The translations under genes were made by a program, and so were the position numbers. The notes under the pieces are model-generated. The model was not told the DNA's origin and searched no databases. It saw only the letters and a list, made by a program, of their open reading frames with translations. DNA of 64,000 nucleotides, from the IMG/VR virus record IMGVR_UViG_2974557979_000001. One strand, written 5' to 3'. Of the stretch, positions 225 through 45,913 are shown in pieces; the stretch's first letter is position 1; each line of letters starts with the position of its first letter. Origin of the DNA: a virus (lineage: Duplodnaviria; Heunggongvirae; Uroviricota; Caudoviricetes; Straboviridae).

Positions 225-382
225 CCAAAACATTTTTTCGTGACATAACAGAAGGAAAAGTTTATACTGCGAAAAAGGATAAAGAAGGTCTATGGATAGA
301 AAACGATTGGAATCGTGATATATGGCTCAATCTGACGAATGAGTATAACAAAGAACTAATTGAATATGAGATAGTGAAATGA
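209..382 (+). CDS. small hypothetical protein (57 aa)
   Basis: ATG at 209; its stop overlaps the pseT start as ATGA; not in the ORF track because it is under 60 aa. Confidence 0.25.
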   Translation: MQIKITKTFFRDITEGKVYTAKKDKEGLWIENDWNRDIWLNLTNEYNKELIEYEIVK

Positions 383-1263
383 ATCTGTTTATGACTATTG
401 GCGTTCCGGGTAGTGGAAAAACTACCTGGGCGCATGAGAAAGCCCGTGAATTGGGTAATACTGTTACGATATCTCGCGATGATCTGCGTAGCTCTTTGTA
501 TAATGCTGGTAAGGGTGCTGGCGGATACAAATACACCAAAGCTAAAGAAGAAATGATTGCGGAAATGCAGGATCACGTTGTTATCTCCACTCTGAAAGAT
601 GGTAAAAACGTGATCATACACAACACGCATCTGAAAGAAAGTGATAAAAATCACTGGCGTGAAATTGCGTTGGAACACAAAGCTGATTTTCATATTGAAT
701 ATTTTGATGTGTCTATTGTTGAACTGCTTCGCCGTAACCACAAACGCGGTCGTGATGCATTACCCGTTTCGCGTCTTTGGGAAATGTTTAACCAGTATCG
801 TAAGATCCGTGGGTTCGTACCAGCAATGGAAATTGTTAATCCCCACAATCAGAAGTGTGTGATCTTTGATGTCGATGGTACTCTAACCAAAGTGGGACAA
901 CGTAGCCCGTATGACTTTACCAAAGTGATCAATGATCCGCCAAATATCCCGATCCAGCAACTGTTTCACCTGTACAAAAATGCAGGGTATAAGTGTGTTG
1001 TTGTGTCTGGGCGTGAAGGTAATCCGCAATGCGCACATGATACATGGGTTAGCCTGTTGAGTTATGGCGTTGAACCGGATGAAATTTTTATGCGTCAAGA
1101 AGGTGATACCAGGACAGATTTTGAAGTAAAAGAAGAAATTTTGTTTGACAAGATTTTAGATAAGTATTATCCTGTTATTGCAGTGGACGATAGAGACACT
1201 CCGGTCGGAATGTGGCGAGCAAACGGGATTCCGTGCTTACAAGTCGATTATGGTGATTTCTGA
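379..1263 (+). CDS. pseT: polynucleotide 5'-kinase/3'-phosphatase (PseT/Pnk)
   Basis: N-terminal P-loop GVPGSGKTT; C-terminal HAD phosphatase motif DVDGTL...VVSGRE...DDR; collinear with T4 Pnk as I recall it. Confidence 0.92.
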   Translation: MNLFMTIGVPGSGKTTWAHEKARELGNTVTISRDDLRSSLYNAGKGAGGYKYTKAKEEMIAEMQDHVVISTLKDGKNVIIHNTHLKESDKNHWREIALEHKADFHIEYFDVSIVELLRRNHKRGRDALPVSRLWEMFNQYRKIRGFVPAMEIVNPHNQKCVIFDVDGTLTKVGQRSPYDFTKVINDPPNIPIQQLFHLYKNAGYKCVVVSGREGNPQCAHDTWVSLLSYGVEPDEIFMRQEGDTRTDFEVKEEILFDKILDKYYPVIAVDDRDTPVGMWRANGIPCLQVDYGDF

Positions 1264-3250: not shown

Positions 3251-3327
3251 GGCCCCTTAGCTCAATAGGTAGAGCTAATCACTCATAATGGTTAGGTTCC
3301 CGGTTCAAGTCACGGGAGGGGCCACCA
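3251..3327 (+). tRNA. tRNA with anticodon CAU (Met or lysidine-Ile)
   Basis: Cloverleaf: acceptor GGCCCCT/AGGGGCC, D arm GCTC/GAGC, anticodon stem AATCA/TGGTT, loop CTCATAA, T loop TTCAAGT, ends CCA; the T stem needs one bulged A. Confidence 0.7.
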
Positions 3328-5253: not shown

Positions 5254-5522
5254 TGGCAATTGATGATATCAAGGGTTATAAACCCCATACTGATAAAAAA
5301 GTAGAAACGGTAAACCGTATCAAAGATGCTGAAAATGCATTAGGTGCAATCCTGGAAGATATCGAACAGCGACTATCAAATTCAGATATTGATTCACTGA
5401 TAGAGGAAGAATTAGATGAGGTGCTTGAACGTATCCATCAAATTCAACTAGCGAAAGACCGACTGAAAGAAGCCTCTATGTGGGCGTGTCGTGCGGTGTT
5501 TCAGCCTGACGAAAAGTATTAA
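5253..5522 (+). CDS. hypothetical protein
   Basis: ORF overlapping the upstream stop (ATGA). Confidence 0.45.
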   Translation: MAIDDIKGYKPHTDKKVETVNRIKDAENALGAILEDIEQRLSNSDIDSLIEEELDEVLERIHQIQLAKDRLKEASMWACRAVFQPDEKY

Positions 5523-5527
5523 AAATC

Positions 5528-5556
5528 AAGCCGTTGCCGAAAGGTAGCGGCTTTTT
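5528..5556 (+). terminator. rho-independent terminator
   Basis: AAGCCG...CGGCTT stem followed by a T-run. Confidence 0.6.
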
Positions 5557-5577
5557 TCGTTTTTACATAAAAAGTTG

Positions 5578-5606
5578 TTGACTCCCTTCGCACATTCCCT
5601 TATAGT
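5578..5606 (+). promoter_or_regulatory. sigma70-type early promoter
   Basis: TTGACT, 17 bp spacer, TATAGT. Confidence 0.6.
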
Positions 5607-5647
5607 TAATCCCGTAGACAAGAAAACACTTTTATGAGGATGACATT

Positions 5648-5941
5648 ATGAAACGCTCTTACAACATGAATGAACTGGTTTTCTTCAAAACTCGTCGTGA
5701 AGCACGTGCTTACGTTCTGGCGGCTGGTAAAAATACTTCTGCTGCTATCGATATGGGTACTGATAAAGCTGTTGGTGCTCGTTGGGCCGCTGTTATCGTT
5801 ATCGCTGCTCCGGTTACTCCGGTTAAAACTCTGGTACTTGGTGCGCGTCACGCCGAAACTCTTAACACCGCTGCAAGCGGTAGGGGCCACGAAGTTAAAG
5901 TGTTCAAGAAGCGTTCTTATCTTTCATGTGCAAGGGGTTAA
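5648..5941 (+). CDS. hypothetical small basic Ala-rich protein, probably highly expressed
   Basis: RBS GAGGA; codon usage dominated by GCT/GGT/CGT/ACT/CTG/GTT, as in highly expressed enterobacterial genes; a strong promoter lies immediately upstream. Confidence 0.55.
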   Translation: MKRSYNMNELVFFKTRREARAYVLAAGKNTSAAIDMGTDKAVGARWAAVIVIAAPVTPVKTLVLGARHAETLNTAASGRGHEVKVFKKRSYLSCARG

Positions 5942-6183
5942 CTATGGCACGATTCATATATAAAGTGGAATACGAAAATACTGAGTTATCTGATACCTTT
6001 TTGAAGATGATTCGTGATCACGGGCAACGTCTGGAAAGAGTAACGATTGATACTGCTTTTGATTGTCCTGTTGGGTTGGTTCTGACATTATCTTGCAGCC
6101 CCGCAAAAGAATCAGCCCGTGTAGAAATGTTACATAAACTAAATGCATTTTATGAAGGTGGTAGTGTATGGCGAGTATTGTAA
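5926..6183 (+). CDS. hypothetical protein
   Basis: ORF overlapping the upstream stop. Confidence 0.4.
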   Translation: MCKGLTMARFIYKVEYENTELSDTFLKMIRDHGQRLERVTIDTAFDCPVGLVLTLSCSPAKESARVEMLHKLNAFYEGGSVWRVL

Positions 6184-6405
6184 AATTTTTCACCGACTCA
6201 GTGAAAGAAATTAAAAGCGCTCTGGAACAATGGAACACTCGCTGTGATGTATCCATTAAATCAGAGTACGAAACAACTTATGATCGTTATGATCCGGCCC
6301 GTGGTTTGCACAATAACCCCCATGAGGTGGAAGTGTGATTGATATCGAAACAAATAACGTGATTCTTGTCATAGTATCTTTTATGTTGGGATACTGGGCC
6401 GCATC

Positions 6406-21910: not shown

Positions 21911-24127
21911 TTAGAGTTTAACTTCTTTTTCTTCCAGAACGATTGTGCAATCAAATTTCACATCTTTCCAGAATTCCGCTGCAACGATATCTGTTGCGGT
22001 AACGCTTACGCTGGTTTCTTCAAAATCCAGATCCGCAAACCATGCGTGTCCGACGACAATACCGTACATTACACGACTCAGGCGATTATTAAGGGCGCGA
22101 ACCTCTTTAATAGTTTCCTTTGTCTGCTTATCAAGATACTCGATCAGGTCATTCTTGTCAAGCGCTTCGATCTCTTTAGATACAGTATCATAAGCCCACA
22201 GAATGATCAGGTCGCCATTGTTGAGTTTCTTCTTACCTTCGGCGCGTTTTGCAACGGTAGCAGCAACAGCCGGAAGTGATGAAACGCCTTTGATTTTCAC
22301 GTTCAGTTCTTTCGACATGTAAACATCAGTCGATTCTGTGCGCTCAACCTTCGGAGAAAAGCCGTAATCACGGATCCCTTGCTCAGACAACCATTCACCA
22401 GCCGCCTCACCAAAGCGCTGTTTAAGCCCTTCTGCGTTGCGTAAACCAATCGCGTTATCACGGAAGAACTTCATTACCTTCTGACGGCCTTTCAGGATTT
22501 CCAGACGGACGTTATCAGCAACAAATTCCTTACCAGAAATACCGCGAGTCATCGAACGGTTAACCAGAGGCAGAGAGGTAAAGTCAACCAGTACAGACAT
22601 ACGGTCTTCACCAATTTTAGCCAGCGGTTTGATAGTCAGACCAGAAGCACGTAAGTTTTTCAGAGTCGGGATATCGGTTTCCAGCGGAAGTACCTTAACG
22701 TTAACGATACCATCTTTAACAATGGTAAAGTTACGCACTTGTTTGGTTTCTACTTTTTCCGGCAATCCAAACTCTTTTTGTTTGCTTTCCGGAATGGTTA
22801 CGTAACCTTGTAGATCCGTATTGATAGAAATGTTCGGACGGGAACTGTTACCCACCAGGTGTTTCACTGCAACTTTCGTCGTGGTTTGGGTAAATTCCGG
22901 TTTCCATACTTCATGCGCTACCAGTTGCGCCGCCAGTGCTTTACGTTCTTCCGGAGTAGAAGCGTTTGCAATCTGTTCTGACAGTTTATCCAGTGTATCA
23001 TCATCTTTCTGGACAGTCTGACGGCCTGTACGATTGTACGCCCAGTGTTCAGAAGACAGGTCGATCACTGTGTCGGTTTCTGCCAGCAGTTCGAGAGCAT
23101 CAACCAGAGTAAACGCGTTTTCATCAGGAACCATGTTGTAATCAACACCATCCATCAGACGTTTAGCCGGATCAACAACCGCTTCGGAGATCATATCTTT
23201 AGCGTTGGAATAATCCTGTTTGGTAAAGCAGTTATCGTATGCTTTAATCAGACGCACATCACCCAGCTTTTTCAGAACTTTCCATGCCAGATCTGGATTC
23301 ATGGTATGAAGCGCATGATACAGAACCACATACAGAACCTGTTCACCTTCTGCTGTTGCCGGATCGAAGCCGTCAACGTCATTGATCGCGTTTTCACCCA
23401 GCGCCCAAATGTTTTTGATATGTTCCGGAACCAGAACAACACCATTTGCAGCATTCAGGACATACACACGGCCTTCATCCAGGTAGATCGCATGAGTTGC
23501 ATCGCCAACTTTGACTTCAACACGTGCGGAGGTTTGCGCGGTAATGATTTCATCAAATGCAGGTACATACGCATCAAACCCTTCAACGAATTTGTGTAAT
23601 GCGTTGGTTGCTTCCGCCATTTTTTCCAGCAGAGGACGGTTTACATAATAACCATATTCCAGGAAAGCAATGTTGTTAAACGTCAACGGCAGAGTAGAAC
23701 ACGCTTTCAGGATGTCATCAGTACGCCAGCAGTTATCATAACCATCAGTCAGGAAGATCAGACTGTTCAGATTGCCATTATCCGCTTGCAGATCGGTAGC
23801 GACTTCAACCGCCAGTTGCAGAGGTTCAACGAAGCCAGTACATCCGGTCGGACGCAGATAACGATCGATAGCATCATTGATTTTGCTCAGGTCGGATACA
23901 GAGCTAACCTTTTCGCCCACGAATACAGAACCGAACTGACCACGGCTGGAGAAATACAGAATAGATACGGTATCATCCTGCTTAACCAGCGTTGCCAGGT
24001 TGTTTTTCAGGTGCTGACGAATGCGCGGGAGTTCGTTATACATCGATCCGGATACGTCACAAACAAAAACGTGGTTAGTCGGGGTTGGTTTGGCTACGGC
24101 GTTTTTGAATTCAATGTTAGTGATCAT
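21911..24127 (-). CDS. von Willebrand factor A (vWA) domain protein, 738 aa
   Basis: N-terminal MIDAS-like DVSGSM ... FLTDGYDN pattern typical of vWA domains; long C-terminal region with no recognisable motifs. Confidence 0.65.
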   Translation of the reverse strand: MITNIEFKNAVAKPTPTNHVFVCDVSGSMYNELPRIRQHLKNNLATLVKQDDTVSILYFSSRGQFGSVFVGEKVSSVSDLSKINDAIDRYLRPTGCTGFVEPLQLAVEVATDLQADNGNLNSLIFLTDGYDNCWRTDDILKACSTLPLTFNNIAFLEYGYYVNRPLLEKMAEATNALHKFVEGFDAYVPAFDEIITAQTSARVEVKVGDATHAIYLDEGRVYVLNAANGVVLVPEHIKNIWALGENAINDVDGFDPATAEGEQVLYVVLYHALHTMNPDLAWKVLKKLGDVRLIKAYDNCFTKQDYSNAKDMISEAVVDPAKRLMDGVDYNMVPDENAFTLVDALELLAETDTVIDLSSEHWAYNRTGRQTVQKDDDTLDKLSEQIANASTPEERKALAAQLVAHEVWKPEFTQTTTKVAVKHLVGNSSRPNISINTDLQGYVTIPESKQKEFGLPEKVETKQVRNFTIVKDGIVNVKVLPLETDIPTLKNLRASGLTIKPLAKIGEDRMSVLVDFTSLPLVNRSMTRGISGKEFVADNVRLEILKGRQKVMKFFRDNAIGLRNAEGLKQRFGEAAGEWLSEQGIRDYGFSPKVERTESTDVYMSKELNVKIKGVSSLPAVAATVAKRAEGKKKLNNGDLIILWAYDTVSKEIEALDKNDLIEYLDKQTKETIKEVRALNNRLSRVMYGIVVGHAWFADLDFEETSVSVTATDIVAAEFWKDVKFDCTIVLEEKEVKL

Positions 24128-25209: not shown

Positions 25210-25489
25210 CTTTCACTTCCTTCATGTTTTTCATAACCTCTTCAAAAGTTACGGGGATTTCGTTGTACTGTAGTGATTCATCATCCCATACATCGCGATG
25301 CCCGAATGTTGAACTTTTTGCAATAATTTTTTCATTTTCCCATACATCAATAGTAACATGATCACCAAGATAAGGGAAATTAGGAACTTTGTTCAGCGCA
25401 TCAACGCAGTTTTGCAATGATTCAGAAACATGGGCAATTTCAGTGAATTCATAATCAGCACTATAAGAAGCTACGTAAATCATCACCAC
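25196..25489 (-). CDS. hypothetical protein
   Basis: ORF. Confidence 0.4.
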   Translation of the reverse strand: MVMIYVASYSADYEFTEIAHVSESLQNCVDALNKVPNFPYLGDHVTIDVWENEKIIAKSSTFGHRDVWDDESLQYNEIPVTFEEVMKNMKEVKDEHL

Positions 25490-25689
25490 CCCCTAACGAT
25501 GCTAACCAGCAGTAAACCCAGGATCCAGAACACAGCAACCGCACAAATACGGGCCATTACTACATTTCCGCGACTAGTCCACTCCGCACTAAGGAACAAG
25601 AGAACAAACGTTAACGCGTATAAAACCATTTCAATAACTTCGGTAATCATATAAACCTCACGAAAAAGCCCCTTTCGGGGCTTTATTAA

Positions 25690-25968
25690 TCAATGTCCGA
25701 ACACACCACGAATAGACTCTGCGAATGCATACAGTTCAGGGTTTTTAGCTTTCACTGTTTCGATTTGCTCCAGAATATAATCTGGTTTATATTTCGCACC
25801 GAACCAGCAGTAAGAGAAAGAACGATCCCACATGAACACGTTATAGTATTCACCGTTGCGAACTTCAACCATCACATAACCAGGATTAGAACCCAGCGGA
25901 TAATCTTTCAGAAGATTGAATTTCGCGCCAGCACCAGTACATCCGTTAAACAGGTCATTAAAAGTCAT
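25690..25968 (-). CDS. hypothetical protein
   Basis: ORF; terminator hairpin AAAAAGCCCCTTTCGGGGCTTT downstream at about 25661. Confidence 0.45.
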   Translation of the reverse strand: MTFNDLFNGCTGAGAKFNLLKDYPLGSNPGYVMVEVRNGEYYNVFMWDRSFSYCWFGAKYKPDYILEQIETVKAKNPELYAFAESIRGVFGH

Positions 25969-26014
25969 GGTATGTTCCTTTTGTCAGTTTCGTTTCAACA
26001 AGGACACTATACTA

Positions 26015-26938
26015 TTATTCTTTAGCCTGTGCAAGCGCTTTTTTGATTTGTTTTGCGATTGCTTCGATCACCGGAACAGATACAGAGTTACCCGCTTGTT
26101 TGTACGCCTGTGTTTTGCTCTTATGCATCTTGAATGAATCCGGAAATCCTTGCAACCGGAAACACTCGCGAGGTGATAACATTCGAGGGTTCTTACCTTC
26201 CTGTAATACCAGACATTGAACACCATCCTTATAGTATTGGGCTGTTATCGTCCCAGTACACACAGAATCAACTGTAACGGCCTGATAGCCAAACCCCTTG
26301 CCGTTTGCCTTGTTTCGCTCTTTACGCTCTCTAAAGCCCTTCCAGGCACGATCTGATATGGTGTATTGATCATTATCCGGTTCGAGAATGTCACCTACCC
26401 TTGTTGGGGTACGTGGAGGAACAGGAAAACTAAAGAATACCGGATCGCGAAAGCAGACAATAAACACACGCTCTCTTCGTTGAGGCAATCCAAAATCTTT
26501 TGTATTCATTACCTGATAATGGATATCGTACCCTTCGTCCTGTAACAGCCTGTAGATGGTTTTAAACGTGTTTCCCTTGTCATGTGTTAATAGCTGGGGA
26601 ACATTCTCAAAGAACAGCACAGAGGGCTTTTTAGCCCGTATAATGCGGAGTATTTCAAAGATGATAGTACCGCGAGGATCTAACATGCCCTGTTTTAACC
26701 CTGCTTTACTGAACGCCTGACAAGGAAACCCCGCCAACAGGATATCGTGATCAGGTACGTCGTTTTCATCAATGGCGAATATATCACCCTGAATATTTTC
26801 ATCACCCCAGTTATCAGCATATGTTTGTTGTGCATGTTTATCGATTTCAGACGTTAAAAGGCATTCGACCCCGCCGAATGCCTTATCGAAACCGAGCCTC
26901 ACGCCACCAACACCAGCGCAAAGGTCAATTATTTTCAT
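26015..26938 (-). CDS. DNA (cytosine-5)-methyltransferase
   Basis: C5-MTase motifs I DLCAGVGG, IV FPCQAFS, VI ENV, VIII QRRERVF, X AGNSVSVPV. Confidence 0.9.
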   Translation of the reverse strand: MKIIDLCAGVGGVRLGFDKAFGGVECLLTSEIDKHAQQTYADNWGDENIQGDIFAIDENDVPDHDILLAGFPCQAFSKAGLKQGMLDPRGTIIFEILRIIRAKKPSVLFFENVPQLLTHDKGNTFKTIYRLLQDEGYDIHYQVMNTKDFGLPQRRERVFIVCFRDPVFFSFPVPPRTPTRVGDILEPDNDQYTISDRAWKGFRERKERNKANGKGFGYQAVTVDSVCTGTITAQYYKDGVQCLVLQEGKNPRMLSPRECFRLQGFPDSFKMHKSKTQAYKQAGNSVSVPVIEAIAKQIKKALAQAKE

Positions 26939-27201
26939 ACGTCGAAATCAACCTCATCGATTTTGTATGATTCTTCGCCAATATCAGCCCATAGCTGAAT
27001 ATTCACACTTTTTGCATCACGATAAAGAGATTGACCACAAAGCCCACCTGTATAACAAGTTTCTGTAATCTCGTTAACTTCCAGGCGGAGGCTATTGCGC
27101 ATAATTTTAACAACAGCCTTTTCCATTGCAGAATCCAGGGTTTTAGTATCACCCAATACTACATCTTTAACGTTCAAAATAACATCGCTCATTATCGCCA
27201 C
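26935..27201 (-). CDS. hypothetical protein
   Basis: ORF overlapping the MTase start. Confidence 0.45.
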   Translation of the reverse strand: MAIMSDVILNVKDVVLGDTKTLDSAMEKAVVKIMRNSLRLEVNEITETCYTGGLCGQSLYRDAKSVNIQLWADIGEESYKIDEVDFDV

Positions 27202-27437
27202 TCCGTTTCAATTCCGTGTTTGTATGCGTCAACGCCCAGAGGGGTGATCACTAAACACATATCAGTATTTTTCGTTGGTGAACTAAACGCCATAGATGCG
27301 TAGCCTTTTTGAATCAGGGCATCACGCCCTGATTTACTGGGTACATCGTTGAAATCTAAATCCAACATTTTCGACGAGTATCCGTAAAGTTTACACAGAA
27401 CATCAATTTCAGCGCCGGACAATTTCGGATATGTCAT
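27192..27437 (-). CDS. hypothetical protein
   Basis: ORF. Confidence 0.45.
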   Translation of the reverse strand: MTYPKLSGAEIDVLCKLYGYSSKMLDLDFNDVPSKSGRDALIQKGYASMAFSSPTKNTDMCLVITPLGVDAYKHGIETEWR

Positions 27438-28441
27438 TTGTAGTACCTCACAACATGTTCAGAATACACACGTTCAATGAAATCATTCCAGAAATCGCGA
27501 TCAACTTCTTTCGGATAACCAGATACAGCCGCCAGCTTTTCAACTTCACACATCGTTGATTCTAGCGCCTCTTGTACGGTTGCGAAAGGAACACCGCCAG
27601 CTTTAACCATTTTCAAAAATGCACTATCCGGAAGAGGATATACAATATCACCTTCTTTGAAAATCTGGATCAATTGCATACCACCGCGCAACGCATGAGA
27701 AAGAGCTTTCCAGTCGATCCCGTTGTTGGCTTCTGCTTGCCGTGCTCGTTCCCCGTATTCATCCCAGAGTTTATACACGGATTTTTTCATTTCCGCTACG
27801 GTGATCGTAGACTGGAATTTACGCCCCAGAACTTCATAAAATTCCTGACAACCTGATTTCAGTGTTTTGTCTGTAACGAATCGACAAAACTCGTTGGTCG
27901 GGAATCGGTTAGAAACCTCACCAACTTTGATGCGCTTGCCGTAGTTAGATTCATCTACGTTACCCAGCAATGATGTACCATACCAGTAATCGGGAATCAT
28001 TTGTAACACATCAACAACTTCACGCAGTGCCGCCAGGCGAGAACCTTTAACGCCATACTTCGCCGCTTGCTTACGAACATAACCAAACAGGCCAGTTAGT
28101 TCCGTAGTGTAGAAGCGTGAACGGTTAGCGCGGAGATATTGCCAGATATCAGAGTTAGCGATCAGTTTGCTATCATCTGCATGAAGCATATCAATCGCCA
28201 CGGTGTCACCATCACATGCGAGGCTAATAAACTTTTGCAGACTGTAAATCTGACGATCTACGTCATTAACACCGTTCTTTGAGTTTTTATCGCCAGTTGA
28301 TGTATCAATAGACTTCTTCGCAGTACCTAACAGGATTTCGCGAGGATGAGGGAGATAGATCCCTTTGTAGTCTTTATCGCTTGTTGGTGTTTCCAGTCCG
28401 TACAGGTGAGAACCAAATACGGTTTCCATAATCATTTTCAT
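27434..28441 (-). CDS. Pol-beta superfamily nucleotidyltransferase (unknown specificity)
   Basis: N-terminal FGSHLYGLETPTSDKDYKGIY = GS-x9-DxD NTase signature; later VAIDMLH provides a third acidic residue; C-terminal helical domain. Confidence 0.6.
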   Translation of the reverse strand: MKMIMETVFGSHLYGLETPTSDKDYKGIYLPHPREILLGTAKKSIDTSTGDKNSKNGVNDVDRQIYSLQKFISLACDGDTVAIDMLHADDSKLIANSDIWQYLRANRSRFYTTELTGLFGYVRKQAAKYGVKGSRLAALREVVDVLQMIPDYWYGTSLLGNVDESNYGKRIKVGEVSNRFPTNEFCRFVTDKTLKSGCQEFYEVLGRKFQSTITVAEMKKSVYKLWDEYGERARQAEANNGIDWKALSHALRGGMQLIQIFKEGDIVYPLPDSAFLKMVKAGGVPFATVQEALESTMCEVEKLAAVSGYPKEVDRDFWNDFIERVYSEHVVRYYK

Positions 28442-28818
28442 CAGAATTCAACCTTTAATGTTTTTGCAATCCCGCGCAATTCAGCGGTAGTAATATCAGG
28501 GATGTTTGTTCCGTAGCTGTTCCCAAATACCTTTTTAATCTTATCACACAAATCGCGGCGGTACACCATTTCTTTATATTCTTCTTCGCTGCGATATAGT
28601 TGATAACCCATCCAACCATCAGCCCACCCGTTATTGCGCTTGATTTTAATATTGGAACAGCAATCAGGCCCATCTTCCGGTCGAAAAGATGCATACAGGT
28701 ACTGACGCGCAACTTTTTGTACGTAAAGGGTTTTGGGGTTGCGATTTTGTCGCTGGTCACTACGGATCCCAGCATCATACAACGTATCACCAACTTTCAC
28801 ATCACTTAAATCAATCAT
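28441..28818 (-). CDS. hypothetical protein with VKVGD motif
   Basis: VKVGDTLYDAG at the N-terminus; the motif repeats twice in the gene at 29039..29650. Confidence 0.45.
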   Translation of the reverse strand: MIDLSDVKVGDTLYDAGIRSDQRQNRNPKTLYVQKVARQYLYASFRPEDGPDCCSNIKIKRNNGWADGWMGYQLYRSEEEYKEMVYRRDLCDKIKKVFGNSYGTNIPDITTAELRGIAKTLKVEF

Positions 28819-29042
28819 TTACGTCTCCAGCAATTAGTTTTTTCACAGTAATGAACGGGAACAGGCACACCCAACGTTTCTTTACTGCTTCTGTTGTATG
28901 TTATCACAACGAATCGGTTTTCGCCACCCCTAACACACTCCAGATCCAAAATCTCGCGGGTTCCCTTCGTGTTAATGTCTGCAACATAATATTCTTCGTT
29001 GTTGACAATCACTATATCCGACATAATCAAGCGAGGTTTCAT
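28815..29042 (-). CDS. hypothetical protein
   Basis: ORF. Confidence 0.35.
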   Translation of the reverse strand: MKPRLIMSDIVIVNNEEYYVADINTKGTREILDLECVRGGENRFVVITYNRSSKETLGVPVPVHYCEKTNCWRRK

Positions 29043-29650
29043 GCAGCGTATACCTCTGATTCATCGATCCATTCCAGATCCTGATTGAGTGATTCAATCA
29101 GCTTTTTATCGCGTCGGGAAATTACAACGGTAGAACCTTTGTCAGCTTTCACGATGATGTCACCAGAAGAGGTGATGTATTCAACCACATAATCACGGCG
29201 AGGGCTTCCGAGTCTATCACCAACTTTAACAGCACGTCTAACCGATTCATGAGATTTTTCGGTGAACACTAATACATCACCTACGTGGGTAACAATACCA
29301 TCAACAGCAGAACGAGAATTAACATAAATTTTGCTAATCTCCGCCATGAAAACACTATCTCTCAGATATCGAGCAGCCACTTTATCTAAACACTGAGAAG
29401 ATACTTTATCTCCGCCAGGATATACTGAGATAATCATTACATGACCCTGAACACGGGCGGTTCCTACTTTATGCAGAATGTAAACCATTGAACCATCAGA
29501 ATCTTTAGATACAAGGATCACGCTGAAAGATTCTTTGTGTTGCTTCTGAGTTTCTCCACAGGTAAAACTCACGTCCAGAAAATCACCAACTTTAACAGCA
29601 CGGGGTTTTGCTACTTGTTCACGAACACTAATAACAGGGATCATAATCAT
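29039..29650 (-). CDS. hypothetical protein with two VKVGD repeats
   Basis: AVKVGDFLDVSF and AVKVGDRLGSP internal repeats suggest a tandem small beta-domain. Confidence 0.5.
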   Translation of the reverse strand: MIMIPVISVREQVAKPRAVKVGDFLDVSFTCGETQKQHKESFSVILVSKDSDGSMVYILHKVGTARVQGHVMIISVYPGGDKVSSQCLDKVAARYLRDSVFMAEISKIYVNSRSAVDGIVTHVGDVLVFTEKSHESVRRAVKVGDRLGSPRRDYVVEYITSSGDIIVKADKGSTVVISRRDKKLIESLNQDLEWIDESEVYAA

Positions 29651-29919
29651 TTCCTCACAGTTTCAAATTCTTCATCAGATTTCCAGTACACGTTAAAATT
29701 ACGACAATCATGATCGGATGTCAACGTGTATTTTTCATTTGTTTTCTCATCGGTGATAACCATAGTTTCATTATCGATTGAGTTAACACCATAAACGAAA
29801 ACATTCTCACCGCGTTTGTTTAAAAACGCATCACCCTTTTCAATCAACTGCCAACAGGTAACAGGCAAACCACCCGGACTAACCGGGCGGGTAACAAGAC
29901 AATAGGGATGTTTAATCAT
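29647..29919 (-). CDS. hypothetical protein
   Basis: ORF. Confidence 0.4.
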   Translation of the reverse strand: MIKHPYCLVTRPVSPGGLPVTCWQLIEKGDAFLNKRGENVFVYGVNSIDNETMVITDEKTNEKYTLTSDHDCRNFNVYWKSDEEFETVRK

Positions 29920-30176
29920 TTAAATTCTTCCATTGCATAGGAAGTAAGATCTTTGAAATACCTTGCGGTGTTGCCTTCTGGGTTGTTTGTAATCTCCATC
30001 AGGATAACAGCACTATCAACTCCTGCTTTCTTAGCCATGAATGAAAGGGCTTCGGTAGCAATAATCGTTGCTTTCATAACATCAGCTTTAGAAACGTTGA
30101 TTGTATTCATTTTTTCTTCCTTTTCATTAATCACTTGGTATGTGTGTATAATACAAAAGCCCTCACGAGAACGCAA
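29916..30176 (-). CDS. hypothetical protein
   Basis: ORF. Confidence 0.4.
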   Translation of the reverse strand: MRSREGFCIIHTYQVINEKEEKMNTINVSKADVMKATIIATEALSFMAKKAGVDSAVILMEITNNPEGNTARYFKDLTSYAMEEFK

Positions 30177-30284
30177 GGGCTTTTTATTAAATTTCGTATA
30201 AATCTGGATTCACAATAACCGCACATAAAAGATCATCTATATGTGCGGCTTCTTGTTCTAAGGTTTGCTTAGATGAATGTGCTT

Positions 30285-31358
30285 TCAAGCAACCCCCGTA
30301 AAGGCGTTTACTATCTGGAAATGATCATCAAAGAATTCCCCTTGTCGTTGCACGACCTCATGCATAGGTAGCCAGAACGCGTCTGCTGCATCATCAGCAC
30401 CGCCCATGATACGAGGCAATGAACCATCGTTATTAGGTTCGAGCTTGATATATTGTGCTACAGTCGGTTTTGAGAAGTACACCGAACGTTTCGGATGATC
30501 GAACAGCATCGAATTACGGATAGAACCACGAATAACCTTTTCTGGTACTTTAATTCGTACTTCTTCCAGCAATTCACGGATCGCACAATCAAGGAACGTT
30601 TCGTTACCGTTTTTGTGTCCACCCGGAAGCGCTAACGCATCTTTACCAGGCGCAAACTTACGACGGATTACTAACACGTGGTTATTACATACGACCACTG
30701 AGTCAGCCGTGCAACAGTTCAGAGAATCCGGATACGGATATTTTTTGAACTTGTCAATCTCTCGTTGCCAGTGTGCATCTTCATGGGACAAACGCTGGAA
30801 TTCTTTTGTTTGTGTCCATTCATCGATAAAGGAAACCGTAGTGCTAGGCGCATATTTTAACAAATCTTCGTCCCAGCCTTCATGATGTTCCCAGATAATT
30901 TTGCGTAAATTGGTCGAGGACAGATCCTGATCTCCAACCTTCACAGGTTCAACCGGAATATGATTCCATCCGAATGCTTTAAGCCAGTAAGAATCTTTGT
31001 CTTTTTCATACCCGACGATCGCAATTCGATCATTTCGAGTTTCATCGATTGCCATACGAACACGGGATTTCCATTTTTCCTCGTTATAGAGGTAATCCGG
31101 AATGTACGCGAATTTGATTCTGGCTGCATCTTCAACATCAAGTTTGCAGATAGACCAGCGAGTGATCATTGCTTGACGCTGTTTAGCGGTCAATGGGTTT
31201 AATGTGTTCGGATATGCATAAGCAGAACCGATCAGAATGTAAACCGTATTAGCAACAGCAAGGGCTTCCCTTACCATTTTCTCATGACCATAGTGAAAAG
31301 GTTGAAAACGTCCAATTACTACAGCTTTATCATATTTGTGTTTCATAACGTGCTCCAC
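30285..31358 (-). CDS. natV: bifunctional NMN adenylyltransferase / Nudix ADP-ribose pyrophosphatase (NatV/NadM-Nudix-like)
   Basis: N-terminal GRFQPFHYGH (NadM-type NMNAT motif); C-terminal Nudix box GGHKNGNETFLDCAIRELLEEV. Confidence 0.85.
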   Translation of the reverse strand: MEHVMKHKYDKAVVIGRFQPFHYGHEKMVREALAVANTVYILIGSAYAYPNTLNPLTAKQRQAMITRWSICKLDVEDAARIKFAYIPDYLYNEEKWKSRVRMAIDETRNDRIAIVGYEKDKDSYWLKAFGWNHIPVEPVKVGDQDLSSTNLRKIIWEHHEGWDEDLLKYAPSTTVSFIDEWTQTKEFQRLSHEDAHWQREIDKFKKYPYPDSLNCCTADSVVVCNNHVLVIRRKFAPGKDALALPGGHKNGNETFLDCAIRELLEEVRIKVPEKVIRGSIRNSMLFDHPKRSVYFSKPTVAQYIKLEPNNDGSLPRIMGGADDAADAFWLPMHEVVQRQGEFFDDHFQIVNAFTGVA

Positions 31359-31522
31359 GTTTAAAGGTTAATCATAAAACAGACGCAATTATCAACACAC
31401 CAAACAATCCACCAATGAAACCAAAGAATAGTGAAATGAGTATAGTCAGTACGATCTGTTTTATGTTCATTATAGTATTCTCGTTTTAGATGTCAAGCCC
31501 CCAAAGAGGGGGCTTTAAAACA

Positions 31523-32449
31523 TTATTTACGAGAATCGAAAATCACTTTACCAGCATAATCCGAACCTATTACAGTTTGAGGTACGCCACCTTTATAGCG
31601 GGTAGAGTAGTTCATCTGTACATCCAGTTCTTTCCAGCGGATCATTTCCGGTGTAATGGTGCGTTGCAGGGCGGCGTTGGCTTCTGCTTCTTTCTTCGCT
31701 GCATACAGACGGGCATCAGCATCACGTTCGTTAGCGATTGCAGCGTTTTCACGCGCCTGACGGTCGGCTTCCGCTTGTTTTACTGCTTGTAATGAAGTCT
31801 GTTCTACTTTTTGCAGTTCAGCTTTAGCAGCGTTAACCTGTTCTTCGCGGATCTTCGTGTTAGTTACCTGTTCCATGATAACTTCCGGCAGGGTGATATC
31901 CTGCAAGAATACCTGTTTCACAGTGTAACCGTAAGGCCGTGCATAATCTTCTACTTCCTGCTGAATTGCAATTTGCAGTTGGTTTTGGATCTTCGCATCA
32001 AACAGGTCTTGCGCTTTCGGTACGGATTTACCAAATTCGCGAACAGTGGAAAGCAGTTTTTCAGTTACATACTTATCCAGTGCCTGATCCTGATTACCCG
32101 CGTTGATACGGTTGATCGGTGCTTTGCTACCGTCGAATTGCAGCATTACGGTCATATCCACAGTGGATTTAAATTTATCCTGGGACGGAACCTGTAATTT
32201 GTCGAACTTCATCGCGATGTCTTTGGTACTGAACGTATCAAACGTTGCCAGCGGGTTTACAATGTGGAAACCGGGCAGTACGGGTTTCGGTGATACTTTA
32301 CCCATGAAGGTTTCAGTTTTAACCGTACCGTCTTGCACAATGGTATACATGTTAGGCACTAACCACAGTGCTGCGACTACGCCCAGAGCGATCAGAGAGG
32401 TTTTCTTCGGGTTGTTCACGATAGTGTTTAAGTTCATCATAATTTCCAT
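31523..32449 (-). CDS. SPFH/band-7 (HflC/stomatin/prohibitin-like) membrane protein
   Basis: N-terminal TM helix LIALGVVAALWLV, an SPFH-like core, and a long Ala/Glu-rich coiled coil (EQVNAAKAELQKVEQTSLQAVKQAEADRQARENAAIANERDADARLYAAKKEAEANAAL) typical of HflK/C. Confidence 0.7.
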   Translation of the reverse strand: MEIMMNLNTIVNNPKKTSLIALGVVAALWLVPNMYTIVQDGTVKTETFMGKVSPKPVLPGFHIVNPLATFDTFSTKDIAMKFDKLQVPSQDKFKSTVDMTVMLQFDGSKAPINRINAGNQDQALDKYVTEKLLSTVREFGKSVPKAQDLFDAKIQNQLQIAIQQEVEDYARPYGYTVKQVFLQDITLPEVIMEQVTNTKIREEQVNAAKAELQKVEQTSLQAVKQAEADRQARENAAIANERDADARLYAAKKEAEANAALQRTITPEMIRWKELDVQMNYSTRYKGGVPQTVIGSDYAGKVIFDSRK

Positions 32450-38815: not shown

Positions 38816-40162
38816 TTAGAAATTGTCTTCGACAAACGCCGCGAGACGGGAACGATACACTGTATCAAGAATGATATGGCTTGAGTGTTCGTATTCTTTC
38901 AGCTTTTCAACAGCCCATACAAACCCGTTGTTAACGGCAGTGTTTCGAGGGTTGTCGATCTGCTTAATGTTCCCGCATAGTATCAGAAGTGTGTTCTCTC
39001 CGCAACGAGAAATGATAGATTTAATTTCGTGGTTGCTAAGGTTTTGACATTCATCAACAATCAGCACAGAACCTTTGCCCGGATCCGGATGTCCGATACT
39101 GCGACCACGGAAGTAATACAGGCTAGGGAATTGCACCACCCCTTTTTCAATCAAACCTTCAATGTATTTTTCAGATTCCGGATTATCCTTAAACAGAATG
39201 TTCAGGCTAGTAATACAAGGTTCGATAGAAGGCCGGAGTTTTTCGCCCAATGTACCAGGAAGGAAGCCGATTTCACTTGATAACGGGCTATCTGACTTCA
39301 CATACATCAAGTTAGCGTAATGTCCACTATTAACCAGGTGCATAGCACCGGAAACAGCAAGCATTGTTTTACCAGAACCAGCGCCGCCCATAATGGTAGC
39401 AACATCGATTTCATTGCTCATAATGGATTCAACGAAAGCCGCTTGCAGAGAATCACGGGGCTGGATAGCTTTCATGAGTTTGCGTTTCATAGCCTGTTCG
39501 TGCTTAACAGGTAAGACATTCAAGCAAATCTCATCAGCAGTCACCACACGCCCGACTAACTCACCATTTGAGGTAATGTACTGGTTAGGATAAAAATCTT
39601 CGTCAGGAAGCGAACTGTAAGTGATTTGGGCTACATTATCTGTATATCCCAACACTTCCACAGTATCCCAGAAATCAGGGATCTCTACATAACCGGAATA
39701 CAATACATCGCTATCTTTTAACGTATCGTCGCCAGTATACTGTTCTACCTTACACCCACGGGACATTGCGATCAGCAACATCATAATATCGCGAGTAACT
39801 AAGGTTGCATCCTGTTGCATACAAGTTTCAATGATTCGTTCGTCTTGCTTGTCAAGAGCAAACGTTTTGTTTCCGACATAATCAACCACTTTAAGGGTGA
39901 TAGTGTCAGACAGTGCTGGGTTTGTCAGGTTTAAAGGAATACCTGATTTCGTAATCGCATCATATGACTGACCGAAAATAACTTTTGACAGAAGCCGGAT
40001 CGCCAATCGTGCTTCGTGCGCTGTTCGTTCTTTCGTTTTCAGGTGATCTAATTCACCCATAGTAGCAGAGGTAATAATGATTTCTGTACCAGGTTGAGTG
40101 AATGAATAGATTGAATAGGGGTTACTAATCAAAACATTGGTGTCTAATACGTATTTTGACAT
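38816..40162 (-). CDS. phoH: PIN-domain PhoH-like ATPase (PhoH2/YlaK family)
   Basis: N-terminal PIN YVLDTNVLI; Walker A GGAGSGKT; VLIVDECQN. Confidence 0.85.
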   Translation of the reverse strand: MSKYVLDTNVLISNPYSIYSFTQPGTEIIITSATMGELDHLKTKERTAHEARLAIRLLSKVIFGQSYDAITKSGIPLNLTNPALSDTITLKVVDYVGNKTFALDKQDERIIETCMQQDATLVTRDIMMLLIAMSRGCKVEQYTGDDTLKDSDVLYSGYVEIPDFWDTVEVLGYTDNVAQITYSSLPDEDFYPNQYITSNGELVGRVVTADEICLNVLPVKHEQAMKRKLMKAIQPRDSLQAAFVESIMSNEIDVATIMGGAGSGKTMLAVSGAMHLVNSGHYANLMYVKSDSPLSSEIGFLPGTLGEKLRPSIEPCITSLNILFKDNPESEKYIEGLIEKGVVQFPSLYYFRGRSIGHPDPGKGSVLIVDECQNLSNHEIKSIISRCGENTLLILCGNIKQIDNPRNTAVNNGFVWAVEKLKEYEHSSHIILDTVYRSRLAAFVEDNF

Positions 40163-44386: not shown

Positions 44387-44654
44387 GTCTAGATGTCAGT
44401 TTAGCGATAAAGTCGAAAATGTGTTGTGAACCATCTTCAACATAATGACGGTATGCAAGCAAAGTTGATACGTGACACATATCGACCGATTCAACTTTGA
44501 TGCTTGATGCGATCATTGTATCATCATTTCCATATCCGTCAATATCACGGAGTACCATTTCTTCAGTCGGGAAACGCTGAAGGAGTGACGCTTCCCGATC
44601 TGATACCAGAGCAACTAAGCGATTATGTCGCGTGTTGTACGATAATATTTTCAT
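44352..44654 (-). CDS. hypothetical protein
   Basis: ORF. Confidence 0.4.
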   Translation of the reverse strand: MKILSYNTRHNRLVALVSDREASLLQRFPTEEMVLRDIDGYGNDDTMIASSIKVESVDMCHVSTLLAYRHYVEDGSQHIFDFIAKLTSRLDEEEYYDLFG

Positions 44655-45913
44655 TTCAATTCCACCGCGTAAACATCAGGTTCAGGGGCTTTGTGTACGC
44701 GCATATCTTTACCGCATACCGCATAAGCCGGACAGTTACGACAACCGTTATGATCCTTATTACCGATCAGTTCATTACGGAACTGTTTGGTTTTCGGATG
44801 TTCCCAGATATCTTTGATAAAGTCGCTGGCTTCCAGGACGTTAAGCCCTTCTGACCATCCACCCTCGACCCAACGTTCGGTAAAGGAACAGGGGAAGAAT
44901 TCACCCTTTTCATTGATGTACGAACTAAACATAGTAGCTTCGCAATCTTCCGCATACTGTTTGTACTGTTCAAAATTTTCATGTCCTTCCATAGCCTCTA
45001 CAAAGGCCGGAGCGGAACAGGAATCAAAACCGAACCCTACACCAGATTCAAGGCAATACTCTACCAGAGCTTTATACTGCTCGCGTGTAACGGTATCCCA
45101 GTTCTTCCCACGACCTTTTTGTTTCAGACCCAGGAATACGATCGCGTTAACTTGTTTCAAGCGCGGATCATTCTTTACAGCATCAACCACGTTAAACGCG
45201 TCATCATAGGTTTTAGAGCTAACCATGAAATGAAGGTTGATTTGCTGTTGTCCGGCTTCTGCAAGATTAGCCACTGAATTAAACGCTACATCGAATCCAG
45301 CATGTTTGTATACTGATACCGCAACAGCCCCAGCAACAGCCGCTAAACGCGCTGCAACGTCTTTTGATACATCAGCAATGGTAAGGTTTGGTACAATGCC
45401 TTTAGAACGCGCATAGGCCATCATATCAAACATATCAGGGTTTGTTTGTCCCTGTGCATCAGCACCGAGGGCGCATTGTGTTAACCAGGGCATTTTATCA
45501 ATGATAGATTTGAATGTATCAAGATCCATATTGAAGCCGTTAGGGTTATTAGACTTGTAGCAGAAACCGCAAAGTTTACCAGCAGGGCCATTGCATTTAG
45601 TTGTGATCTCGATATCGAGAATTTCGGGGAATGGGGCATAGGTAGGATCAGTTTCGAACGATATTCCCCAGCGAGCAAACTCACCAGTTTTAACGTTGAA
45701 ATTGTAGTTATACCACTTAGAGCGAGCGTAACGGATATCACCATCTTGATATATGAACAGGGTAGGAGCTTTCAGAACAGTTTGTGCGTTATTCATAATA
45801 TAATTCTCAAAATCTAACATGGGATTGGAAGACAGCGCGAGCGAGACTTTCATTATCAAACGGTATTGATTGGTGTTGTCCTTTGCTATCAATGTTAACG
45901 CGCCAAAATTCAC
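44651..45913 (-). CDS. putative radical-SAM-like Fe-S enzyme (atypical cysteine spacing) with Cys-rich C-terminal domain
   Basis: ILDIEITTKCNGPAGKLCGFCY resembles the radical SAM strand-loop motif but with CX8CX2C spacing; C-terminal DSCSAP...PCSF...NGCRNCPAYAVCG is SPASM/twitch-like; start uncertain. Confidence 0.45.
   Translation of the reverse strand: MNFGALTLIAKDNTNQYRLIMKVSLALSSNPMLDFENYIMNNAQTVLKAPTLFIYQDGDIRYARSKWYNYNFNVKTGEFARWGISFETDPTYAPFPEILDIEITTKCNGPAGKLCGFCYKSNNPNGFNMDLDTFKSIIDKMPWLTQCALGADAQGQTNPDMFDMMAYARSKGIVPNLTIADVSKDVAARLAAVAGAVAVSVYKHAGFDVAFNSVANLAEAGQQQINLHFMVSSKTYDDAFNVVDAVKNDPRLKQVNAIVFLGLKQKGRGKNWDTVTREQYKALVEYCLESGVGFGFDSCSAPAFVEAMEGHENFEQYKQYAEDCEATMFSSYINEKGEFFPCSFTERWVEGGWSEGLNVLEASDFIKDIWEHPKTKQFRNELIGNKDHNGCRNCPAYAVCGKDMRVHKAPEPDVYAVELK

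Follow-up and report, generated by a model that had tools for sequence, protein, structure and literature searches.

The analysed window, a 64,000-nucleotide stretch of viral DNA (Straboviridae; IMG/VR record IMGVR_UViG_2974557979_000001), is 100% identical to Klebsiella phage Matisse, a T4-like member of Slopekvirus. The locus considered here comprises a nucleotidyltransferase (NTase) gene, two small ORFs and a C5 cytosine DNA methyltransferase (MTase) gene (Table 1), all four of which lie on the minus strand, exactly where the preliminary description had placed them; both the NTase and the MTase are already present in the RefSeq annotation of Matisse. Neighbouring ORFs among the four share 1–10 bases, according to the start taken for the middle ORF, gp124, which is 85 aa long from the RefSeq start at 27192 and 88 aa long from 27201, while gp125 shares 4 bases with the stop end of the NTase gene. 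In profile searches gp124 gave phrog_7342 and no other match, and gp125 gave phrog_4365 alone, without any Pfam, NCBIfam or PADLOC match. Directly upstream of the NTase gene, with one base in common, lies the gene for a ProQ-C-like protein, and 1.8 kb upstream, in the gene run shared with the NTase, a NadR/NadM-like gene, the product of which has NF003786 as its top NCBIfam model (E 1e-77, under that model's cut-off). The sole 12/12 match to the sigma-70 consensus in the interval 25400–31600 may possibly mark the start of a transcription run that spans both the NTase and the MTase.

Table 1. Features of the NTase–MTase locus and of the polynucleotide kinase gene in the Matisse window
Feature	Coordinates	Strand	Match or evidence
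RlaP-family Pol-beta NTase, T4 NrdC.11 orthologue, gp126, RefSeq 'nucleotidyltransferase', 335 aa	27434..28441	-	PF10127, phrog_388
gp125, 81-aa ORF	27192..27437	-	phrog_4365 E 8.7e-26
gp124, 85/88-aa ORF	26935..27201	-	phrog_7342 E 2.3e-47
Orphan C5 cytosine DNA MTase, gp123, SsoII/NlaX-like subgroup, 307 aa	26015..26938	-	PF00145 E 1.9e-95
125-aa protein, phage ProQ C-terminal-like domain	28441..28818	-	PF24203 E 1.7e-13
NadR/NadM-like bifunctional NMN adenylyltransferase / Nudix hydrolase	30285..31358	-	PF01467 + PF00293
Sigma-70 consensus promoter match TTGACA-16-TATAAT	31469..31496	-	12/12 consensus match
Polynucleotide kinase/3'-phosphatase, gp73, T4 PseT-like	379..1263	+	PF25109 HAD_PNKP E 5e-45 + AAA_33 kinase

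The NTase, gp126, matches the Pfam RlaP model at E 3.2e-12 (47.1 bits, gathering cut-off 23), the match being limited to residues 3–131, or model positions 20–141 of 249, and phrog_388 at E 3e-119. It is 48–52% identical, over 99–100% of its length, to the NrdC.11 proteins of the T2/T4-like phages T2, Bp7 and VR7, and 76–79% identical to those of RB43 and RB16. In Matisse the gene follows a regB-like gene, vs, tk and rI; the corresponding order in VR7 is regB, vs, tk, rI, mobD.x, nrdC.11 and then nrdC.9 through to nrdC. Given this full-length identity and the conserved regB-vs-tk-rI-mobD-nrdC.11 position, gp126 is, on sequence grounds, orthologous to T4 NrdC.11 and belongs to RlaP (RNA-ligase-associated Pol-beta), the family in which a 2025 preprint has also placed T4 NrdC.11 (PF10127; PMC12776372). 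The T-even NrdC.11 proteins and gp126 have in common an identity of about 50%, the same genomic position and a genome that encodes RNA ligases and a polynucleotide kinase (Pnk). The 'thioredoxin' label carried by many database entries for NrdC.11-type NTases is wrong.

The earlier reading of gp126 as an NTase of the Pol-beta superfamily with a helical C-terminal domain is upheld by residue conservation and by the predicted structure. The signature consists of G10-S11, D22-x-D24 and a third carboxylate, D84; among 134 diverse homologues G10 is invariant, and S11, D22, D24 and D84 are each kept in at least 90%. Of the GS-x9-DxD pattern originally given, the GS and DxD elements are present and the spacer has 10 residues instead of 9, a trivial miscount. 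The AF2 model (pLDDT 93.8) comprises an N-terminal NTase fold and a C-terminal helical domain (helices 215–334); in RlaP the final helix is reported to pack against the N-terminal domain. The catalytic residues align with those of canonical RlaPs, and the C-terminal motif D243-x-K245...R252 aligns with the canonical RlaP of Bacillus PK16, a protein that covers PF10127 model positions 22–248 of 249; both the GS...DxD...D Pol-beta domain and a C-terminal helical domain with D-x-K...R are thus shared with the T4 NrdC.11/RlaP family. The NrdC.11 clade also carries an extra insertion of about 70 residues (about 150–215), absent from canonical RlaPs, and its C-terminal half is divergent. A search of the PDB with the gp126 sequence, in a copy evidently lacking an RlaP crystal structure, returned no match (best E 0.91), and the solved folds nearest to the model were Hailong HalB and the kanamycin nucleotidyltransferase ANT(4'), at 8–16% identity and TM-scores of about 0.24. 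HalB, solved with oligodeoxyadenylate and dATP, and ANT, which acts on aminoglycosides, have other substrates, and their resemblance to gp126 is one of fold, not of family membership. Among the structural neighbours are MNT/HEPN pairs, and a resemblance to HEPN-like helical bundles is seen in the C-terminal domain. Membership of the fold is therefore suggested by sequence together with weak matches to other NTases.

The second enzyme, gp123, had been described as a complete C5-MTase, and this description stands. The match to PF00145 runs end to end (residues 1–300 on model positions 1–324 of 324), TIGR00675 is matched at E 2.4e-97 (326.5 bits, cut-off 100.65), and residues 2–301 align with M.HhaI (E 2.4e-69) with the catalytic motifs in register. 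Motifs I (DLCAGVGG, 5–12), IV (GFPCQ with Cys73), VI (ENV, 111–113), VIII (QRRER, 153–157) and X (GNSV, 283–286) can all be read in the protein, which is a complete and probably active C5-MTase. As judged from the profiles, the matches of both gp126 and gp123 are strong and not due to chance. The accompanying claim that the cytosine of this phage is unmodified (non-hmC) is likewise supported, since the annotation of the whole Matisse genome contains neither a dCMP hydroxymethylase nor a glucosyltransferase; in addition, the Matisse DNA polymerase gene abuts uvsX, and ordinary cytosine has been stated for the sister phages KP15 and KP27 (PMC3620542, PMC5219037).

The relatives of gp123 point to an SsoII/NlaX/Ecl18kI-type enzyme. 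Against the equivalog model of E. coli Dcm (NF007772) the protein scores 197.8 bits, under the cut-off of 710, and it is without an N-terminal extension, having 307 residues versus 410–482 in the aligned Dcm-like chains. Its closest cellular relatives are bacterial MTases, 58–60% identical, that are encoded beside EcoRII-C/Ecl18kI-like endonucleases, the partner endonuclease matching R.Ecl18kI at E 5.7e-29 versus 8e-7 for EcoRII and 5e-5 for PspGI. The full motif set is common to gp123 and these enzymes, and in the target-recognition region (residues 166–250) gp123 is 52–56% identical to its NlaX-like relatives, although the phage clade has substitutions of its own there. These systems differ in possessing a partner endonuclease, whereas no Ecl18kI/EcoRII-C-like endonuclease was found in the 176-kb Matisse genome (best tblastn E 1.8), and gp123 is therefore an orphan methylase. 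Two other assignments were rejected. The GCGC specificity of M.HhaI, the best solved-structure match, is unlikely for gp123, because the two glycine-rich recognition loops of HhaI are not conserved in the alignment of the two proteins and much closer relatives belong to Ecl18kI-type (CCNGG-type) systems; and the Haemophilus aegyptius homologue of gp123 is not M.HaeII, its neighbour being a truncated EcoRII-C protein.

M.NlaX and M.SsoII recognise CCNGG, and homology would thus assign this target to gp123. The site statistics favour CCWGG: in the Matisse genome CCWGG is tolerated (O/E 0.84), many other palindromes being purged, whereas CCSGG is depleted 2.6-fold (O/E 0.38), which argues against full protection of CCNGG and fits CCWGG better. 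The DNA of KP15 and KP27 resists EcoRII (PMC3620542), as does DNA methylated by E. coli Dcm (CCWGG); by analogy with phage KP36, which is without a C5-MTase, this resistance could come from host Dcm. A literature search for Slopekvirus methylome data found none. It is proposed that gp123 methylates ordinary cytosines of CCWGG or CCNGG sites in the phage DNA and that this methylation would shield the non-hmC genome from restriction, and gp123 thus probably protects the phage from restriction enzymes.

With regard to gp126, it had been held that the substrate of the NTase could not be inferred, a position overtaken by the profile search, which led to RlaP and the T4 NrdC.11 orthologue, and by the finding that the two assayed RlaPs act on the 3'-OH of RNA (PMC12776372). 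RlaP activity has been measured on two Pseudomonas enzymes only, PfRlaP and PaRlaP, which add 1–2 NMP to the RNA 3'-OH, work better with Mn2+ or Co2+ than with Mg2+, and do not use DNA or protein as substrates; no E. coli protein became labelled, and the preferred substrate was the 3' end of a tRNA 5' half resembling the product of an anticodon-loop cut (PMC12776372). The role proposed for them, partly tested by aminoacylation assays, is to replace, before ligation, the nucleotides lost to tRNA-cutting toxins (PMC12776372). Both enzymes are bacterial, are encoded in RtcB/RtcA operons and belong to cluster 1a, whereas NrdC.11 belongs to cluster 5 (PMC12776372), and the phage clade differs further in its insertion and in having no adjacent ligase gene. 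By analogy with the Pseudomonas enzymes, we infer that the NrdC.11 clade may share RlaP activity and that its target in vivo may be tRNA.

Most likely, the GS...DxD...D centre of gp126 would, with a divalent metal, transfer 1–2 NMPs from NTPs onto damaged RNA at its 3'-OH. As candidate targets we propose the tRNA halves that arise when a host anticodon nuclease such as RloC cuts and also removes a nucleotide; according to published work, RloC's excision of the wobble nucleotide is expected to overcome the tRNA repair of phages (PMC3458546, PMC2610378). Pnk would heal the ends, gp126 would add the nucleotide or nucleotides and Rnl1 or Rnl2 would seal, so that some of the tRNA would be returned to full length. 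The repair partners are present, as in the T4 Pnk–Rnl1 pathway directed against PrrC/RloC: Matisse encodes Pnk (gp73), Rnl1 (gp69, directly beyond the edge of the window) and Rnl2 (gp243, at a different genomic site). The first of these, annotated as 'polynucleotide kinase' in RefSeq, is 38.7% identical to T4 Pnk (E 1.6e-50); gp178 (304 aa), also considered as Pnk, has no Pfam match and was rejected. Within such a pathway RlaP would supply the nucleotide-restoring step said to be needed against wobble-excising RloC, whereas the classical T4 pathway against PrrC works without NrdC.11. T4 mutants without nrdC.11-mobD.3 are viable (PMC9825161), which fits an accessory role of nrdC.11.

The genomic surroundings of the gene bear on the choice of target. 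In Matisse, Pnk and Rnl1 are about 26–28 kb and Rnl2 about 74 kb away from the NTase, and neither in Matisse nor in VR7 is an RNA ligase adjacent to it. Outside the MTase-bearing lineage, RNA ligases, tRNA genes and tRNA-end enzymes recur in the neighbourhood of the NTase: the RlaP gene lies about 4–5 kb or less from an RNA ligase in Gordonia Sephiroth and Sinorhizobium phiM7, which represent independent lineages, inside or beside tRNA clusters in Ruegeria RpAliso and Sephiroth, near a CCA-adding enzyme in CR3 and near a Thg1-like enzyme in Serratia BF. The last two neighbours are tRNA-end enzymes, not ligases, and together with the distance from any RNA ligase in T4-like genomes, the insertion and divergent C-terminal half of the NrdC.11 clade, and the MNT/HEPN pairs and HEPN-like bundles recovered in the structural comparison, they lend some weight to a target other than excision-damaged tRNA. 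The NTase might then tail or mark RNA (tRNA 3'-CCA repair, a decay tag) or nucleotidylate a host HEPN-type toxin in the manner of an MNT antitoxin. Such a function is rather unlikely in view of the substrate preferences of the Pseudomonas RlaPs, the ligase adjacency in two independent phage lineages, and the complete T4-type set of healing and sealing enzymes in Matisse.

The proximity of the NTase to the MTase had been taken to imply a connection between them, an implication that is not borne out by wider sampling. The NTase was found in 1,614 phage records and the MTase, at no less than 60% identity, in about 175, leaving roughly 1,400 records in which the NTase occurs without a gp123-type MTase. 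Among 80 sampled IMG/VR loci, in which methylases were detected with seven seed proteins so that other families could be missed, the MTase lay beside the NTase in eight, all from one lineage (Slopekvirus/Pseudotevenvirus). The small ORFs follow the same distribution, gp124 being confined to these eight loci and gp125 present in six of them and in none of the other 72; the ProQ-C-like gene is also lineage-restricted (8/80), and in 14 of the 80 a NadR/NadM-like homologue is encoded no more than 10 kb from the NTase. The NTase itself occupies its conserved T4 position. When 11 independent lineages were compared, three or four had a methylase about 2 kb or less from RlaP, namely Slopekvirus/Pseudotevenvirus, Bacillus PK16 (C5), Serratia BF (N6/N4) and possibly Ruegeria RpAliso (no Pfam match); no methylase was near the RlaP gene in the seven others, and the co-location was not significant in a binomial test with base rates of 0.15–0.27, which were assumed, not measured. 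A functional NTase–MTase module as a general rule was therefore rejected, the distant co-occurrences involving different methylase classes, and the two genes are probably neighbours because gene order has been inherited within one lineage. We consider it likely that this interval is occupied by two accessory genes with independent functions, an NrdC.11/RlaP RNA-end NTase and an orphan anti-restriction C5-MTase, brought side by side by that inheritance.

Closer connections between the two genes have been weighed against this reading. It is quite improbable that the co-location in three or four of 11 lineages is non-chance and that the Matisse pair belongs to a mobile counter-defence island, made up of the NadR-like NAD+ salvage and ProQ-C-like genes, RlaP, the two small proteins and the orphan methylase, or else that the NrdC.11-clade NTase with its insertion acts on a target other than tRNA damage that is tied to restriction evasion. 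A single functional module of NTase, small ORFs and MTase, in which, for example, the NTase would act on DNA ends or modified DNA, or the methylase on RNA together with the NTase, is less probable still. In its favour, the four overlapping ORFs are probably transcribed together, their order is kept in both Slopekvirus and Pseudotevenvirus, and the other phages with a methylase close to an RlaP homologue, PK16, Serratia BF and RpAliso, are unrelated; nevertheless, the 72 sampled NrdC.11 loci and the many phage records with the NTase without a gp123-type MTase, the unrelated classes of the nearby methylases, the seven lineages without any, the lack of significance at the assumed base rates, the failure of characterised RlaPs to use DNA, and the similarity of gp123 to the methylases of genuine restriction–modification systems all argue against it. 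A role for the NTase as a cGAS/DncV-like or OAS-like enzyme, producing, capping or imitating an immune nucleotide signal, is scarcely credible, for although the Pol-beta GS...DxD signature is common to gp126 and CD-NTases and Matisse carries an Acb1 homologue, and hence engages cyclic-nucleotide immunity, gp126 matched no family of the PADLOC defence-system profile library at E<=0.01 and no cGAS, DncV or OAS structure is among the fold matches listed, and identification as a CD-NTase, OAS or signalling enzyme was accordingly rejected.

As a discovery the observation is ordinary, both genes being already known from the RefSeq annotation. The MTase has been discussed in the KP15/KP27 papers and appears in published compilations of genes for restriction evasion, while the RlaP family was named in 2016 and its biochemistry was described in the 2025 preprint, which cites T4 NrdC.11 by name. 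What changes is the reading of the NTase, which becomes a candidate RNA-repair enzyme, neither a signalling NTase nor a partner of the methylase. The target of gp123, whether CCWGG or CCNGG, bears on the host range of Slopekvirus phages in therapy development. If NrdC.11-type enzymes protect T4-like phages from nucleotide-excising anticodon nucleases such as RloC, the classic T4 tRNA repair pathway would gain a third step, placed after healing and before sealing.

Over the 3.5 kb around the locus, the sequence agrees at 100 % identity with that of Klebsiella phage Matisse (KT001918/NC_028750; Straboviridae, Slopekvirus); this segment has matches in 170 phage records. The Pol-beta nucleotidyltransferase (NTase) gene, two small ORFs and the C5 cytosine methyltransferase gene lie in series on one strand, as the preliminary description had it; neighbours share 1–10 bases, varying with the start of the middle ORF, and RefSeq names were already present. 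A ProQ-C-like gene overlaps the start of the NTase gene by one base, and its product may be an RNA-binding partner. Further upstream, a perfect consensus promoter lies just ahead of a NadR-like gene. On the other side of the locus, gp116 carries a von Willebrand factor A domain at its N terminus (PF13519/PF00092) and belongs to a family without an assigned function.

Features of the locus, of the wider Matisse genome and of two compared phages (window coordinates unless stated; record coordinate = window coordinate + 46702)
Feature	Coordinates	Strand	Remarks
NTase, gp126	27434–28441	minus	335 aa; RefSeq 'nucleotidyltransferase'
81-aa ORF, gp125	27192–27437	minus	
88-aa ORF, gp124	26935–27201	minus	RefSeq start 27192, giving 85 aa
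Methyltransferase, gp123	26015–26938	minus	307 aa; RefSeq 'DNA methyltransferase'
Phage ProQ C-terminal-like domain protein	28441–28818	minus	125 aa; PF24203, E 1.7e-13
NadR/NadM-like NMN adenylyltransferase + Nudix gene	30285–31358	minus	1.8 kb upstream of NTase
gp116	21911–24127	minus	738 aa; ~2 kb downstream of methylase; full-length match to phrog_2426
Pnk, gp73	379–1263		
tRNA-Met (CAT)	3251–3327	+ (ARAGORN); minus (RefSeq)	
gp151	38816–40162	minus	
gp164	44651–45796	minus	
gp179	50515–51042	minus	175 aa; PF03235, E 7e-19
gp191	54560–55183	minus	RefSeq 'RNA ligase'; PF23474, E 2.1e-47
Nampt, gp248	150964–152397 (NC_028750)		outside the window
Serratia phage BF Thg1-like + RlaP pair	1188–1958 and 4977–6221 (examined stretch)		RlaP homologue 414 aa; Thg1-like PF04446, E 2.6e-30
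Ruegeria phage RpAliso RlaP homologue	5001–6002 (examined stretch)		annotated 'tRNA nucleotidyltransferase'

The identity of the NTase and its orthology to T4 NrdC.11 are secure. The protein matches the Pfam RlaP model ('RNA repair pathway DNA polymerase beta family'; E 3.2e-12, above threshold) and phrog_388 (E 3e-119), with no match among PADLOC profiles. It is ~50 % identical over its full length to NrdC.11 of T2, Bp7 and VR7 and 76–79 % identical to that of RB43 and RB16, and its position in the early-gene run regB-vs-tk-rI-mobD-nrdC.11 is conserved. There are 1,614 phage records with a homologue, and the homologues among public proteins fall into 3,833 clusters at 50 % identity. The GS...DxD signature described earlier is present and conserved across homologues, although its spacer is ten residues (GS-x10-DxD) rather than nine; among 134 diverse aligned members, G10 is invariant, while conservation is 90 % or more at S11, D22, D24 and D84 and, in the C-terminal half, at D243, W244, K245 and R252. 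Distant phage RlaPs align at the N- and C-terminal motifs alike, that of Bacillus phage PK16 matching positions 22–248 of the 249 in the Pfam model, and the NrdC.11 clade is set apart from them by an insertion of roughly 70 residues. In GenBank and UniRef, NrdC.11 orthologues are often mislabelled 'thioredoxin' (T2, X20, POP12, Dev_CS701, VAC13), a label that probably spread from the name of the adjacent gene, nrdC.

The substrate had been considered beyond inference; however, the family is identifiable, and two of its bacterial members act on RNA 3'-OH ends. Two Pseudomonas RlaPs, characterized in a December 2025 preprint, add one or two NMPs to the RNA 3'-OH, using all four NTPs and also dATP as donors and being more active with Mn2+ or Co2+ than with Mg2+, while DNA and E. 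coli proteins are not substrates (PMC12776372). The preferred end is the 3' end of the 5' tRNA half in a mimic of tRNA cut in the anticodon loop, and RlaP treatment before ligation partially rescued aminoacylation of a tRNA short of one nucleotide (PMC12776372). The same authors assigned T4 NrdC.11 to the RlaP family (cluster 5 of their network) and proposed RlaP as an antidote to nucleotide-excising nucleases such as the anticodon nuclease RloC (PMC12776372); according to work on RloC, phage tRNA repair should fail at a lesion of this kind (PMC3458546, PMC2610378). From these bacterial relatives and from gene context, we infer that the Matisse NTase would add nucleotides at RNA 3' ends. Matisse encodes the remaining enzymes of the pathway, namely Pnk, Rnl1 (gp69) and Rnl2 (gp243), and T4 lacking nrdC.11-mobD.3 is viable (PMC9825161), as expected for an accessory counter-defence gene. 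The sole tRNA gene of the window lies ~2 kb from Pnk and ~4 kb from Rnl1, the three forming a loose cluster far from the NTase.

The clustering of methyltransferase and NTase was not borne out as a meaningful pairing. It was examined in 80 viral contigs encoding the NTase at 40–100 % identity, with flanks of up to 10 kb on both sides, methylase detection being limited to the seed profiles used. A C5 methyltransferase adjoins the NTase in only 8 of the 80, all with at least 76 % NTase identity and representing one lineage. These eight loci alone have the 88-aa ORF and the upstream ProQ-C-like gene, and the 81-aa ORF occurs in six of them and nowhere else in the sample; any seed-detectable methylase was found in 2 of the remaining 72. 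A Pseudotevenvirus shows the identical gene order, and the arrangement is therefore inherited. A methylase lies within ~2 kb of three distant RlaP homologues, although the classes differ (C5 in PK16, N6/N4 in BF, no Pfam match in RpAliso), and none was found near the RlaP gene in seven further lineages (VR7, three mycobacteriophage groups, Gordonia Sephiroth, Sinorhizobium phiM7 and Cronobacter CR3). On the other hand, RlaP genes are accompanied by an RNA ligase in Sephiroth and phiM7, tRNA clusters in RpAliso and Sephiroth, a CCA-adding enzyme in CR3 and a Thg1-like enzyme in BF. On a rough estimate with assumed base rates, three to four methylase neighbours in 11 independent lineages are unremarkable, while five RNA or tRNA neighbours are unlikely by chance. 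The RpAliso homologue lies within a large tRNA gene cluster; that of BF is 3 kb from the Thg1-like tRNA-His guanylyltransferase and one small ORF away from the N6/N4 DNA methylase.

The methyltransferase is complete, as initially described: the whole PF00145 model is covered (E 1.9e-95), TIGR00675 is also matched, the M.HhaI alignment spans residues 2–301 (E 2.4e-69), and motifs I, IV (PCQ, Cys73), VI (ENV), VIII (QRRER) and X (GNSV) are readable. The score on the E. coli Dcm model is 197.8 bits, below the cut-off of 710, and the enzyme is thus no Dcm equivalog. Some 175 phage records contain a copy with 60 % identity or more, and the next phage relative is only 43 % identical among the matches listed, a spread sample of the ranking, while cellular relatives at 58–60 % are plentiful. 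Two of these, from Haemophilus influenzae biotype aegyptius and Hafnia paralvei, lie directly downstream of an EcoRII-C-domain endonuclease that matches R.Ecl18kI (CCNGG) at E 5.7e-29, EcoRII at 8e-7 and PspGI at 5e-5, the latter two both cutting CCWGG. Because of this Ecl18kI-like partner, and because identity to the cellular relatives in the target-recognition region (residues 166–250; 52–56 %) approaches that in the catalytic core (59–61 %), the enzyme is placed by sequence in the SsoII/NlaX-like group. No related endonuclease was found in the Matisse genome, and the methylase is therefore an orphan.

The earlier proposal that cytosine is unmodified in this phage is supported. The annotation of the whole Matisse genome lists neither a dCMP hydroxymethylase nor a glucosyltransferase, and the DNA polymerase gene abuts uvsX; in T4, gene 42 and beta-gt sit between these two. 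Ordinary cytosine has been stated for the sister phages KP15 and KP27, where this gene was already listed as 'Dcm' (PMC3620542, PMC5219037), and a later paper tabulated the equivalent gene of Slopekvirus VAC13 as a restriction-evasion gene. Given unmodified cytosine, it is odd that gp179 consists of a GmrSD_N (DUF262) domain alone, a domain that forms the N-terminal part of a type of restriction enzyme directed at modified DNA.

Recognition-site counts in the whole Matisse genome
Site	Observed	Expected	O/E
CCWGG	278	332	0.84
CCSGG	48	126	0.38
AAGCTT	0	35.7	0
GGTACC	0	23.6	0
GCATGC	0	20.8	0
GGWCC	2	70.7	0.03
RCCGGY	2	38.6	0.05
CCATGG	1	25	

Homology suggests CCNGG as the methylation target. Across the genome, CCSGG is 2.6-fold depleted while CCWGG is tolerated, the pattern expected from protection of CCWGG but not of CCSGG. 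GATC, GCGC, GAATTC and GGCC are, like CCWGG, close to expectation and several other palindromes are purged, which suggests site avoidance mixed with methylation. In published digests, EcoRII fails on KP15 and KP27 DNA despite ~280 sites, and host Dcm yields equal resistance in a phage without a C5 methyltransferase (PMC3620542). The target is thus narrowed to CCWGG or CCNGG.

The NadR-like gene, which 14 of the 80 sampled loci have at no more than 10 kb from the NTase, and the Nampt gene together look like a phage NAD+ reconstitution pathway; in Sephiroth, Nampt and PRPP synthetase genes lie directly beside RlaP and RNA ligase. Elsewhere in Matisse, gp191 is named an RNA ligase but is clearly homologous to the anti-CBASS phosphodiesterase Acb1; its gene adjoins a 57A-like tail-fibre chaperone gene, at the position that the Acb1 gene (57B) has in T4. 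The early-gene region also encodes a PhoH-like ATPase with a fused N-terminal PIN domain (gp151) and a radical-SAM/SPASM protein (gp164).

Both genes and the RlaP family were already known, and the novelty is confined to the corrected interpretation of the locus: the NTase and the methyltransferase genes are both accessory and independent of each other, and they lie in an early-gene region that is variable in this T4-like phage.
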